Of a DNA stretch of 48,438 nucleotides, positions 5,889 through 8,072 are shown one piece after another. The DNA lies in assembly GCA_050730055.1 (NCBI GenBank), contig JBOHMF010000001.1, positions 1 through 48,438 on the forward strand. Direction: 5' to 3'. The translations under genes and the position numbers were made by a program. A model generated the notes under the pieces. The model was not told where the DNA came from, ran no database searches, and saw only the letters and a program-made list of their open reading frames with translations. Within the stretch, counting starts at the first letter, position 1, and every line of letters starts with the position of its first letter. The DNA is from Stellaceae bacterium. GTDB lineage: Bacteria; Pseudomonadota; Alphaproteobacteria; ATCC43930; CGMCC-115725.

Positions 5889-5949
5889 CGATGTCTTCCC
5901 CCGTATCGAGACCGTTTCCGGCAGAGCTTTGCGGCATTGTGGTAGAATA

Positions 5950-5978
5950 ATTGTATCATGGCGGCTCGGCGGTGTCTT
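5950..5978 (-). promoter_or_regulatory. candidate sigma70-type promoter for ugpBAEC
   Basis: The minus strand reads AAGACA-N17-TACAAT (-35 at 5973-5978, -10 at 5950-5955), about 60 nt upstream of the ugpB ATG. This is a pattern match only. Confidence 0.25.
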
Positions 5979-6077
5979 GGTACCCTCCTGATAGAGCGCC
6001 GGATTCTTTGGAGTACGAGCAAAAGGGTTCGACAAAGCTCCGAAACGCTCTGGGCCTTCATACGTGATTGCGGACCT

Positions 6078-7181
6078 TTACGAGAAACGCAATATCATCG
6101 ACGGGGACGGAAAGGTCCCGCGCTTTCGACCTTCTGGTGCCTCGATCACCTGAAGCGCCGGAGGAGTCGAGCATTCAAGTCTCTTCAACACACCCTTGTA
6201 ATGCGTCTCTCTGAAGGGTGTTTCGATGAGCACAAATTCCTCGATTTCGGACACAGGAACATTCCTTGCGTGGAAACGCCCCCGAAGTTGCTTTGCGAGA
6301 AGGTCACGTCGAGGCTCCTTACTAAACAAAATAAGTTGATTGGGGTCAGTAGCATCCGAAAATGTAAACTCGCCACTTTCATCAACTCTCCACATTGCTT
6401 CCTTCATTTTCTTAAGCCCTAGTAAACTATTTGAAGCATAAAATAGATAATAATCTGTAAGATTTGACTCATTCTGCATTCTGAAGGAGCGAACGTATCT
6501 GGCGCCGGCAACTTTCCTAAGTTGATGAAGATAAAGATCATGTAAGGAGCGGTCCCGGTTGCTCGGTAGCGACAGCCGAATACCTCGTCTCCACTCTGGT
6601 GTTCCAAAAAATTCATCGAAATTTGCAGGCTGATCCGGATGGCCGAGAAAACGGTTGATTTCCTCGTACATGAAGGTCACAAAGGTCTCACAATTAGGCT
6701 GACCAAGAATGAATTGGACAACATCGAAGGGAGCGCCTGTCCAGCCGAATGGATCAATGAAGGCAAATGTCGGTGGAAATTTGCGTGCTCTTCTTAAATA
6801 AGATTGCTTTAATCCCTCGAATGCATCTGAGAATTTTTTATTTCCTGCAATCTCAATTTGGAAATTAGGAGGCATAGGTAATTCATCTAGACACTTTCGA
6901 AGCATCGCGGCTCGGTTTTGTTCTTTTTCTACAAATAGGAAGAGAATGTTGCCCTTGATTCTCGCCTTGTGTTCCAAGGCAGACTTGACCGCGATAATTG
7001 GCGAGCCGTCTTCCCCGCCGGCATAGCGCCCCGGTCCTGCGAAACCGTCGATGTAGAGGATATTCGGGAAACCAGCCTGTGCCAGAATGGGCATCCATGC
7101 CCGCAGGTAACGCCGGAGTATATCATGCTTGGCGCGCGTATGCGGCTCCAGCTCCCAAACGGTCGTTCTTGGTGCTGCCAT
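6078..7181 (-). CDS. tcmP: three-Cys-motif partner protein TcmP-like (TIGR04474-like)
   Basis: The N-terminus WELEPHTRAKHDILRRYLRAWMPIL...ILYIDGFAGPGRY matches the remembered TcmP pattern (HT..K..L..YL ... YIDxFAGxG). The gene sits immediately downstream of a DUF5131 gene, as is usual for this family. Start taken at ATG 7181 (GAGG 7 nt upstream); the longer ORF to 7337 is rejected. Confidence 0.7.
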   Translation of the reverse strand: MAAPRTTVWELEPHTRAKHDILRRYLRAWMPILAQAGFPNILYIDGFAGPGRYAGGEDGSPIIAVKSALEHKARIKGNILFLFVEKEQNRAAMLRKCLDELPMPPNFQIEIAGNKKFSDAFEGLKQSYLRRARKFPPTFAFIDPFGWTGAPFDVVQFILGQPNCETFVTFMYEEINRFLGHPDQPANFDEFFGTPEWRRGIRLSLPSNRDRSLHDLYLHQLRKVAGARYVRSFRMQNESNLTDYYLFYASNSLLGLKKMKEAMWRVDESGEFTFSDATDPNQLILFSKEPRRDLLAKQLRGRFHARNVPVSEIEEFVLIETPFRETHYKGVLKRLECSTPPALQVIEAPEGRKRGTFPSPSMILRFS

Positions 7182-7935
7182 GTGCAAGCCTCGCCGTGTT
7201 TTCTGCGAGCTTATCCACACTCGGCCATTGGTTCCACTCTCTACCGTCAAGAGTGCGGCCTCCGGACTTCGCACGCAAGCCGCCCCATTGTTTGAAGAAA
7301 AACGGCACTCCCGCCGCGAGGCATCTATCGCGGACATCGCGAACCCAACGTACCTCGACCGGCCGTGCTCGCGGGCCGGATTCCCCGCCGACGATTACCC
7401 AGTCGATGCCATCGAGCGGCAATTCTGCTATTTGCCCGATAAGCGGCTCGATAGAGAGGAATCGGACCCGTGCGGGCGTTTGCTGCAAATGGCGAATTCG
7501 AGATATCTTGCTCCCATCCTCCACACTCGTGCCAAGCCATAAGTGACAAGGCGCTCCCATCGAGCCATAGCGCCCACGGATGTAGTCCCGCAAACGGGAA
7601 CTACGCTTTGTGAGGACCTGAAATATGTGCCATGTCGCGTGCTCCATCTTGTCGAACACCTGATCAACGAACCCCTCTGGTATCTCTTTATGGAAAAGAT
7701 CGCTCATAGAATTGACAAAAATTTTGCGTGAACGCTTCCAGCGAAGCGGCTGGTCAAGACGCTCAGGCCGCAAGGTTAGGTTAAATCCGCTACTGAAAGG
7801 ATGATCTGGCACTCCTCGGAAGCGCTCTGAAAAGCGCTCGGCGTAGCAGTTGTCGCATCCCGCACTGATCTTGGTACATCCGGTGACAGGGTTCCATGTG
7901 GCGTCCGTCCACTCGATTTCTGTACTATCTGCCAT
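7123..7935 (-). CDS. phage Gp37/Gp68-family protein (DUF5131, PF07505-like), three-Cys motif
   Basis: [35 protein letters not shown] (C-x6-C-x2-C at 7846-7878) and C-terminal FFFKQWGG are hallmark DUF5131 features. ATG 7935 is preceded by GGAGGG. Confidence 0.75.
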   Translation of the reverse strand: [270 protein letters not shown]

Positions 7936-8006
7936 CTCCAGCCCTCCAAAGCGCGGTGGCCCGTTCAACTTAATCGTTTGCAAACCCTTATCCCAGTCAT
8001 GGGTAT

Positions 8007-8023
8007 TACCATATCATATGCTA
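8007..8023. promoter_or_regulatory. imperfect 17-bp palindrome in the DUF5131 / glpD intergenic region
   Basis: TACCATAT-C-ATATGCTA, with 7 of 8 arm positions complementary. It lies between the divergent starts at 7935 (-) and 8073 (+). Confidence 0.2.
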
Positions 8024-8072
8024 CCAAGGATGTGAACAAAATGAGAACTTCCGTCTAGGAGGCTGATCCACG

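Follow-up and report, generated by a model that had tools for sequence, protein, structure and literature searches.

The 48,438-nucleotide stretch of DNA analyzed here, referred to below as the window (positions 1 to 48,438 of contig JBOHMF010000001.1, assembly GCA_050730055.1, Stellaceae bacterium), carries between ugpB and glpD a low-GC islet of two genes, which code for a protein of the DUF5131 family and for its three-Cys-motif partner, TcmP. We propose that this islet is a mobile, DNA-damage-inducible cassette that lacks mobility genes, is repressed by LexA, and supplies two enzymes acting on nucleic acid, most probably DNA; taken as a whole, this reading has in our judgment a probability of about 0.45. 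One component of it, the functional coupling of the two enzymes, is almost certain. A preliminary description, drawn from the letters of the sequence, had presented the islet as an undescribed system. That claim has to be given up: the pair is defined by TIGR04474 (with PF07505 for DUF5131), is already catalogued as PDC-M30 and PDC-M41, and is uncharacterized. What is new here is a predicted SOS operator on the cassette promoter and the RlmJ-type nature of TcmP. The islet, its genes, and its flanks are as follows.

5987-8049, no strand: low-GC inserted cassette of about 2.06 kb, each boundary placed to within roughly 15 nt on either side, from homology with empty-site relatives together with GC content
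7123-7935, minus strand: gene for DUF5131 (phage Gp37/Gp68 family; PF07505), 270 amino acids, a putative radical-S-adenosylmethionine (SAM)-type Fe-S enzyme
6078-7181, minus strand: gene for TcmP (TIGR04474), 367 amino acids, with a predicted RlmJ/Trm1-like class I methyltransferase fold and a C-terminal winged helix
7123-7181, minus strand: out-of-frame overlap of 59 nt between the 3' end of the DUF5131 gene and the 5' end of the TcmP gene, from the coordinates and translations of the open reading frames (ORFs)
4554-5888, minus strand: ugpB, first gene of ugpBAEC, flank (ORF; orthologues in the metagenome relatives L083, L256, and L259)
8073-9623, plus strand: glpD, flank (matches to PF01266 and PF16901)

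In base composition the islet stands apart from everything else in the window. The collapse in GC content that had been noted across about 5940-8060 is plainly visible, and the hand counts given for it (49 of 60 at 8101-8160, 15 of 60 at 6421-6480) are exact. Measured in 200-nt windows, GC is 0.38-0.55 across about 5900-8100, against 0.60-0.70 before the drop, and the remaining 1-kb blocks of the 48-kb window range from 0.605 to 0.73, with none below 0.605. The insert (5987-8047) has a GC of 0.511, as against a mean of 0.669 for other 2.06-kb windows (standard deviation 0.016, minimum 0.622; z = -9.7). The same holds for GC at third codon positions (GC3), which is 0.60 in DUF5131 and 0.48 in TcmP versus 0.83 in both ugpB and ugpA. 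Over the entire gene, too, TcmP (0.48) is lower than DUF5131 (0.56), an order that is also seen in the cassettes of L083, L148, L154, and L157. The gene content of the islet is limited to two minus-strand ORFs, at 7123-7983 for DUF5131, with a likely start ATG at 7935 that has GGAGGGCTGGAG in front of it, and at 6078-7337 for TcmP, with a likely start ATG at 7181. Hence, the two co-oriented, overlapping genes previously reported are indeed there, and searches with PF07505 and TIGR04474 both match. Their 59-nt overlap is identical in L083 and measures 53 nt in L148 and 35 nt in L154, and it suggests that their translation is coupled.

That the islet is an insertion between ugpB and glpD, old and patchy in its distribution, follows from comparison with close relatives. 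The names on close GlpD homologues place the host in the family Stellaceae (Alphaproteobacteria). The comparison rests on the metagenome relatives L083, L256, and L259 because GTDB representatives are too distant: a scan of the GTDB representative genomes with GlpD returned only relatives of 50-60% identity, none with ugpB adjoining glpD or with the pair, and is uninformative for the empty site. Across the three metagenome relatives, orthologues of UgpB are 85-88% and those of GlpD 79-82% identical to the window. In L256 and L259, two equally close Stellaceae (UgpB 86-88%, UgpA 87-89%, and GlpD about 80% identity), ugpCEAB and glpD are immediate divergent neighbors, separated by 213 and 235 bp of intergenic DNA from which the islet is absent and in which no remnant of it was found. 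In L083 (UgpB 85%, UgpA 88%, GlpD 82%), the same two genes, again of low GC, occupy the same site. Alignment to the empty-site relatives runs from ugpB to about 5986, and homology restarts at about 8049, at a point 13-30 nt before the glpD ATG. These empty junctions bear out the earlier idea of a minimal cassette set between the two genes. Moreover, one of the three close relatives has the islet, whose codon usage departs from that of the backbone; universal presence at this site with backbone-like codon usage was what the preliminary description had named as the sign of an ancestral arrangement. Low GC as an ancestral, locus-intrinsic feature is ruled out by the empty sites and by GC3 (0.48-0.60 versus 0.83), and horizontal transfer is the best explanation for the presence of the cassette. 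A further candidate for an empty site, L084 (UgpB 82%), was rejected, as other genes lie upstream of its ugpB.

Between the window and L083, the synonymous divergence (dS) of the islet genes (0.51 and 0.80) resembles that of the flanks (0.53-0.74), and the ratio of nonsynonymous to synonymous divergence (dN/dS) is 0.10 for DUF5131 and 0.12 for TcmP, with 0.13-0.15 in the flanks; both islet genes are thus under purifying selection. Judged by UgpB, L083 groups most closely with L259 (93%), which has no islet, leaving the window as outgroup to both. Presence and absence of the islet are therefore out of step with the tree, so that either repeated clean loss is needed or the filled allele spread by homologous recombination through the flanks. 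Two independent assemblies of near-identical strains, L001 (Logan SRR27067714_19872) and L258 (GCA_050729995.1 JBOHMA010000783.1), both break at the islet (window 6760-8166), one contig stopping within TcmP and the other beginning 93 nt into glpD; these breaks could reflect a drop in coverage over low-GC DNA or heterogeneity of the population for the islet.

No recombinase gene lies within the islet, and the integrase or transposase, tRNA target, and flanking repeats of a classical genomic island or integrative element are missing there, as had been stated. Direct repeats at the flanks do not go beyond 10- to 20-mers at chance level, and neither inverted repeats nor a target-site duplication mark the insert. 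The sole tRNA gene of the window, tRNA-Lys at 29405-29480, is 21 kb away. Beside that tRNA lies secA (29550-32348, minus strand), an ordinary housekeeping gene, with a mild GC dip and a strong AT skew at 30-32 kb. The insertion has left its mark on glpD: most of the ancestral sequence upstream of this gene was lost with it, and about 24 nt (8049-8072) remain, so that the glpD promoter would now have to lie inside the end of the cassette, next to the putative LexA site described below, from which glpD is now 25 nt away. The ugpB-glpD intergenic region has a fast turnover; at 7880-8000 of L256 it holds two GC-rich REP-like palindromes (CCCTCCCCCATCAAGGGGGAGGG and similar) that neither L259 nor the window has.

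The DNA-damage component of our proposal comes from the right end of the cassette, where two elements precede the DUF5131 gene.

8034-8048, minus strand: LexA-type SOS box GTTCTCATTTTGTTC, of the form GTTC-N7-GTTC, identical in L083 and corresponding to a published consensus
8008-8036, minus strand: promoter-like site of the DUF5131-TcmP operon, TTCACA-17-TATGGT with a TG extension, the only such site for the operon

The -35 hexamer overlaps the box by 3 nt, and the interval between DUF5131 and glpD is 88% identical between the window and L083. GTTC-N7-GTTC is the operator consensus of alphaproteobacterial LexA (PMC9578287). Of 94 independent loci, 9 have a perfect copy, in gene orientation, upstream of DUF5131; shuffled sequences gave 0.14 on average and never more than 1. 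Boxes with at most one mismatch are found in 19 of the 94 upstream regions, versus 3.7 ± 1.8 expected. Loci with a LexA-type box before DUF5131 include the window, L083, L148, L154, L157, L172, L173, L176, and L182; the boxes sit at promoter positions, over the -35 or the -10, and have the extended form tGTTC-N7-tGTTC in common. A box of another type is found in L203, which has a perfect 12/12 E. coli-type operator, TACTGTACGTTTAAACAGTA (TACTGT-N8-ACAGTA), 28 nt upstream of DUF5131, between its PDC-M41A and M41B genes; we estimate the chance expectation of such a box over all upstream regions at about 1e-3. One short stretch of that locus matches a Cupriavidus plasmid at the DNA level, which suggests a betaproteobacterial host, and an operator of this beta/gamma type would be the one appropriate to such a host. 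Further, AGAAC-N4-GTTCT stands at the corresponding place in two low-GC loci, L194 and L202. That the box in the window might instead be an element of glpD was considered and rejected, since it recurs with DUF5131 at insertion sites of unrelated context and there invariably follows the orientation of DUF5131. No such box was found before TcmP where TcmP is the first gene. Hence, DUF5131 appears to be the LexA-gated gene of the pair, and TcmP may be constitutive.

The first of the two proteins, DUF5131, is identified without ambiguity at the family level. It matches PF07505 at 2.3e-95 (319.2 bits versus a gathering threshold of 28.9; profile positions 2-243 of 243), the PADLOC models PDC-M30B and PDC-M41B at 1.6e-99 and 2e-101, and phrog_2045 at 2e-97. 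In contrast, its match to TIGR04471 (rSAM_mob_pairA, "radical SAM mobile pair protein A") is below threshold (1.5e-19, 70 bits versus 355). The family is large, as all 8000 homologues that were scored passed E ≤ 1e-5, which puts it at 8000 members at least, and the best 120 of these share 67-84% identity with the window protein. Its cysteine motif, also remarked on earlier, is confirmed in the translation.

7846-7878, minus strand: three-Cys motif C-x6-C-x2-C, Cys20, Cys27, and Cys30 of DUF5131

Among 34 homologues, these three cysteines and a GGESG stretch are invariant. The AlphaFold2 model (pLDDT 73.6) comprises beta1, the Cys loop, and alpha1, followed by six beta/alpha units, with the motif in the beta1-alpha1 loop. 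RadicalSAM.org assigns DUF5131 to Megacluster-5-2, alongside the MJ0683-like proteins (5-1) and spore photoproduct lyase (SPL; 5-3) (PMC9477430). Membership in the radical-SAM superfamily is thus putative: it is a curated, homology-based assignment, to which our structure searches added no confirmation.

The second protein, TcmP, matches TIGR04474 at 3e-57 (194.5 bits versus a cutoff of 53; profile positions 1-262 of 263) and PDC-M30A at 7.9e-65. A Foldseek search of the PDB with its AlphaFold2 model (pLDDT 88) placed RlmJ (1.6e-6) and Trm1 (1.3e-5) on top, with a probability of 1.0; of the 59 PDB matches at E ≤ 1e-3, the 50 listed are without exception methyltransferases or the aminopropyltransferase related to them. 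Its diagnostic segments are the following.

7023-7055, minus strand: motif I, the SAM-binding loop, YIDGFAGPGRY, which aligns with YLDTHAGAGRY of E. coli RlmJ
6741-6755, minus strand: motif IV, DPFGW, in the place of DPPY in amino-methyltransferases and equivalent to IDPPYE in RlmJ
6171-6362, minus strand: C-terminal winged helix-turn-helix, Pfam GMT-wHTH (PF22560, 2.2e-08, 34.9 bits versus a cutoff of 27)

Across 42 TcmP homologues, the invariant residues of motif I are D45, G46, F47, G49, P50, G51, and Y53, and in motif IV D143, F145, G146, and W147 are invariant and P144 nearly so; the acidic residue after beta2, in FLFVE, is likewise invariant or nearly so. Three motifs are common to TcmP and E. 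coli RlmJ, namely, K18-H19 in the N-terminal helix, AGxGRY, and IDPxx (FIDPFGW versus LIDPPYE). No curated methyltransferase family of Pfam matched TcmP at E ≤ 10, a level at which Pfam added no domain, and an hhalign comparison with RlmJ reached a probability of 9.7%, matching motif I only. Searches of PDB sequences, with single proteins and with profiles, found no match for either TcmP or DUF5131. By fold and motifs, then, TcmP is predicted to be an RlmJ-like methyltransferase of the exocyclic-amino type that lies outside the curated families at the sequence level. The earlier suggestion of a methyltransferase-like partner is thereby strengthened, on the evidence of Foldseek and the RlmJ-type motifs.

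Solo DUF5131 genes are common in phages, and there they have DNA methylases, PAPS-reductase-like genes, RecT, RuvC, and replication genes as neighbors. Taking this DNA-metabolic context together with the amino-methyltransferase fold of TcmP, the assignment of DUF5131 next to SPL, and SOS control, we propose that the two enzymes act sequentially on one DNA nucleotide. TcmP, led by its winged helix, would bind DNA and flip a purine into an RlmJ/Trm1-like pocket that includes motif IV (DPFG), where it would install, or recognize, an N-methyl or N-alkyl group on the exocyclic amine. DUF5131, as a [4Fe-4S]/SAM enzyme with a C-x6-C-x2-C motif from the SPL-containing radical-SAM megacluster, would be produced upon LexA cleavage, and its 5'-deoxyadenosyl radical might then work on that nucleotide in turn, whether to build on its methyl group or to undo a lesion. 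The payoff could be repair or tolerance of damage or, alternatively, the marking of DNA in conflicts between mobile elements and hosts. That a methyltransferase and then a radical-SAM enzyme can work on a single base has its precedent in Trm5 and TYW1, which act in this order on m1G37. A bolder form of the proposal, which we consider possible but doubtful, is that the pair constitutes a widespread SOS-induced pathway of radical chemistry on DNA, the first outside SPL, with the partner selecting or priming a purine and the radical-SAM enzyme reversing a lesion or building a hypermodified base, and that phages and plasmids borrow it. If true, such borrowing would account for the appearance of the pair in defense-island screens.

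Several observations weigh against an SOS-controlled pair of enzymes acting on DNA. We know of no biochemistry for either the DUF5131 or the TcmP family. The likeness of TcmP to RlmJ and Trm1 is at the level of fold and motifs only, with TM scores of 0.37-0.50 in addition to the hhalign probability of 9.7%, and, as both of these are RNA enzymes, its substrate could be RNA. DUF5131 lacks the canonical CX3CX2C motif and has no match to PF04055 even at E ≤ 10, and a Foldseek search of the PDB with its model returned generic TIM barrels only, at E ≥ 0.015, and no radical-SAM structure. As for the operator, the box is absent from actinobacterial and rhizobial plasmid loci, and within the window alone it is not significant (2 matches versus 1.28 expected); the second match, GTTCGGTCATGGTTC at 9646-9660 on the minus strand, is at the start of an AMP-binding acyl-CoA synthetase gene and is probably due to chance. 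The Firmicutes-type boxes of L194 and L202 are also hairpins with a T run and could be terminators. The L148 group, which has the alpha-type box, is binned as Steroidobacteraceae, i.e., as gammaproteobacterial, and this suits a regulator encoded by the cassette, such as the winged helix of TcmP, better than it suits LexA. Lastly, a pure repair role leaves the defense-type neighborhoods of the pair unexplained.

These neighborhoods bring us to the distribution of the pair, which looks obligate across bacteria, archaea, and phages. Among the best 80 loci of at least 591 IMG/VR contigs with DUF5131, the TcmP family is the only recurrent neighbor, being adjacent in 33 of 80, with the runner-up seen 4 times. 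The pair occurs in Proteobacteria, Actinobacteria, haloarchaeal plasmids, and phages, with the genes in co-directional overlapping, convergent, or divergent arrangement. TcmP alone forms 7904 clusters at 50% identity (E ≤ 1e-3), and DUF5131 is present in at least 181 phage genomes in addition to the IMG/VR contigs. A pattern-based scan for viral TcmP gave 2 loci where a hidden Markov model (HMM) search of DUF5131 loci gave 27-33 adjacent partners; the scan is therefore an underestimate. On chromosomes, the pair stood alone among metabolic genes, usually at a lower GC than its flanks and always with TcmP below DUF5131, in all 6 of the distinct contexts examined. Two of the box-bearing loci, L157 and L172, have a common left flank of mnmE, a DsbH-like thioredoxin gene, and ogt, so that DUF5131 and TcmP directly follow an alkylation-repair gene; beyond the pair they differ, one having DUF3644 and a helix-turn-helix (HTH) gene and the other a toxin-antitoxin set of BrnA, HTH, and Gp49 type, as at the border of a variable hotspot.

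The strongest competitor to our proposal is the one behind the PDC-M30 entry, that the pair is dedicated to defense against phages and other mobile genetic elements, attacking or modifying the nucleic acid of the invader or marking that of self, with the SOS box coupling its expression to infection or prophage induction. We regard this as rather unlikely, despite a considerable body of circumstantial support. Both window proteins, on adjacent genes, match PDC-M30 strongly (DUF5131 also matches PDC-M41), although these are matches to component HMMs and not calls under PADLOC's system rules, and the models were built from cassettes embedded in BREX, DISARM, and type I restriction-modification (R-M) systems. 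PDC-M30 and PDC-M41 share the DUF5131 family FAM_00989 and are 2 of 145 guilt-by-embedding candidates from these three kinds of system, which the authors themselves call untested (Payne et al., bioRxiv 10.1101/2024.01.29.577857). Our literature searches found no validation and no functional study of the pair: DUF5131 is mentioned in a single paper, TcmP is named in two gene lists, and two surveys of Pseudomonas aeruginosa include PDC-M30; nothing came up on PDC-M41, on GMT combined with wHTH, or on Gp68 combined with LexA. One of these surveys records PDC-M30 in 32 strains, 68.8% of them phage resistant, and the other reports two copies in PA14.

Individual loci are also suggestive of defense. 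In L197, HsdR, HsdM, and a serine integrase adjoin the pair. On pSymA of Sinorhizobium meliloti (L168, 1254221-1259882), DUF5131 is followed by a 415-residue protein with a GMT-type winged helix, convergent to SMa2243 and to the validated defense gene hna; this locus has two TcmP-like genes, the one just mentioned and the 308-residue SMa2243, annotated as TcmP, which comes after hna. In the Gordonia phages ThankyouJordi and Bosnia, the pair is located between the integrase and the immunity repressor, with TcmP coming next after the repressor, on the same strand, and probably co-transcribed with it; the two genes overlap by a few nucleotides in Bosnia. The lysogeny cassette of Bosnia (L169, 33115-38276) also holds a phosphoribosyltransferase with DprA, of the known DprA-PPRT defense type, and a peptidase with an HTH gene ahead of DUF5131 and TcmP. 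The patchy, strain-variable, low-GC distribution of the pair would fit defense equally well. Nevertheless, metabolic genes alone surround the pair in the 6 chromosomal contexts examined, DUF5131 itself is carried by large numbers of phages, a nuclease or other obvious effector is absent from the two-gene cassette, and sequence identities of 67-84% among the best DUF5131 homologues are unusual for proteins in an arms race. Thus, the phage-conflict role put forward in the preliminary description retains the support of its Hna, type I R-M, DprA-PPRT, and prophage immunity neighbors and is opposed by the metabolic surroundings of most chromosomal loci, so that the case for it is circumstantial; the LexA-type operator, which that description had missed, points at least as strongly to a function linked to DNA damage.

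A different objection concerns the operator itself. The box might be no LexA site but the operator of a regulator belonging to the cassette, with the winged helix of TcmP binding the direct repeat at its 11-bp spacing in an autoregulatory loop like that of R-M systems controlled by C proteins, and with no SOS induction. It is true that the box moves together with the cassette, whose extreme end it marks at several insertion sites of unrelated context, that direct repeats spaced by one helical turn are typical targets of winged-helix proteins, and that one box-bearing group was binned as a gammaproteobacterium. We hold this to be improbable, in that the motif agrees with the published alphaproteobacterial LexA consensus, low-GC loci have GAAC-N4-GTTC, and L203 has the perfect E. 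coli-type box in its stead, while the short TcmP of L203 (PDC-M41A) has no match to the long PDC-M30A model that the window TcmP matches.

Another possibility, in our view distinctly improbable, is an addiction module akin to R-M, in which TcmP, often constitutive, methylates self DNA and a LexA-gated DUF5131 attacks unmethylated DNA by radical chemistry. The placement of the box before DUF5131 but not before a first-gene TcmP would suit such a division of labor, as would the Gordonia prophages, in which TcmP lies downstream of the repressor on its strand and DUF5131 has its own convergent promoter. The tight gene overlap suggests coupled expression, and an isolated low-GC islet of two genes without mobility genes or a target-site duplication, present or absent at a locus among close relatives, behaves much as R-M complexes do. 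However, in phages solo DUF5131 is common and solo TcmP rare, whereas the reverse is usual, orphan methylases being frequent and orphan nucleases rare; the two genes of the window form one operon with DUF5131 first; and a radical-SAM restriction enzyme is without precedent. Finally, an RNA-modifying pair, with TcmP as an rRNA or tRNA methyltransferase and DUF5131 modifying the same nucleotide further, possibly as a shield of tRNA or rRNA against a phage or toxin, is very improbable, for although the solved structures closest to TcmP are those of RNA methyltransferases, Trm5 and TYW1, the precedent, work on tRNA, and RNA-directed systems like PrrC are likewise embedded in type I R-M, it sits poorly with the predicted SOS regulation, the relationship of DUF5131 to SPL, an enzyme of DNA, the DNA-metabolic company that it keeps in phages, the winged-helix domain, and a strain variability not expected of housekeeping RNA modification.

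We therefore return to the mobile, LexA-repressed cassette acting on DNA as our preferred reading. Its interest lies in the fact that DUF5131 and TcmP are large families without an assigned function that have been counted as defense candidates in many surveys purely by association. Here, a clean insertion with matched empty sites delimits the functional unit to 2.06 kb, inclusive of its own promoter and operator, and thus the locus offers both a clean natural experiment and a new, testable regulatory prediction, namely, that DUF5131, and not necessarily TcmP, is under LexA control. If the link to SOS is true, the pair may be a pathway of DNA repair or modification instead of, or besides, one of immunity, and catalogue-based counts of defense systems would need correction.

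Among known systems, the nearest are the catalogue entries themselves. PDC-M30 and PDC-M41 consist of the same two protein families on adjacent genes; those entries are embedded in defense systems, whereas the window pair is alone between metabolic genes. The PDC-M30 entry gives no function, mechanism, or test, and we found neither SOS control nor an RlmJ-like A component in it. The pair defined by TIGR04474 and PF07505 has the same composition, adjacency, and Cys motif as that of the window, and the family definition is silent on function. The best structural matches to TcmP are E. coli RlmJ (23S rRNA m6A2030) and Trm1 (tRNA m2,2G26), the latter with the motif IV DPFG, as in TcmP. Sequence identity to these two is 12-13%, and TcmP differs from them in its winged helix, strain variability, mobility, and DUF5131 partner. 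SPL and the MJ0683-like "SplB" belong to the same radical-SAM megacluster as DUF5131 (5-1, 5-2, and 5-3), although structural and sequence searches gave no match between DUF5131 and SPL. Unlike DUF5131 with its C-x6-C-x2-C, SPL has the CX3CX2C type of motif and needs no methyltransferase-like partner; it acts directly on a DNA lesion, and the predicted SOS control of DUF5131 would fit such a link to damage.

With regard to mechanism, the template is the wyosine pathway, in which a class I N-methyltransferase, Trm5, is followed by the radical-SAM enzyme TYW1 on the N-methylated base. That pathway differs in being a housekeeping one on tRNA and in the two clusters and the pyruvate used by TYW1. 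With regard to way of life, parallels are suggested by the LexA-regulated imuA-imuB-dnaE2 cassette and by type II R-M complexes. Their proteins are unrelated to DUF5131 and TcmP, and the islet has no polymerase or nuclease; nonetheless, these, like the islet, are small, patchy, horizontally spread cassettes that have their own operator or lack mobility genes.

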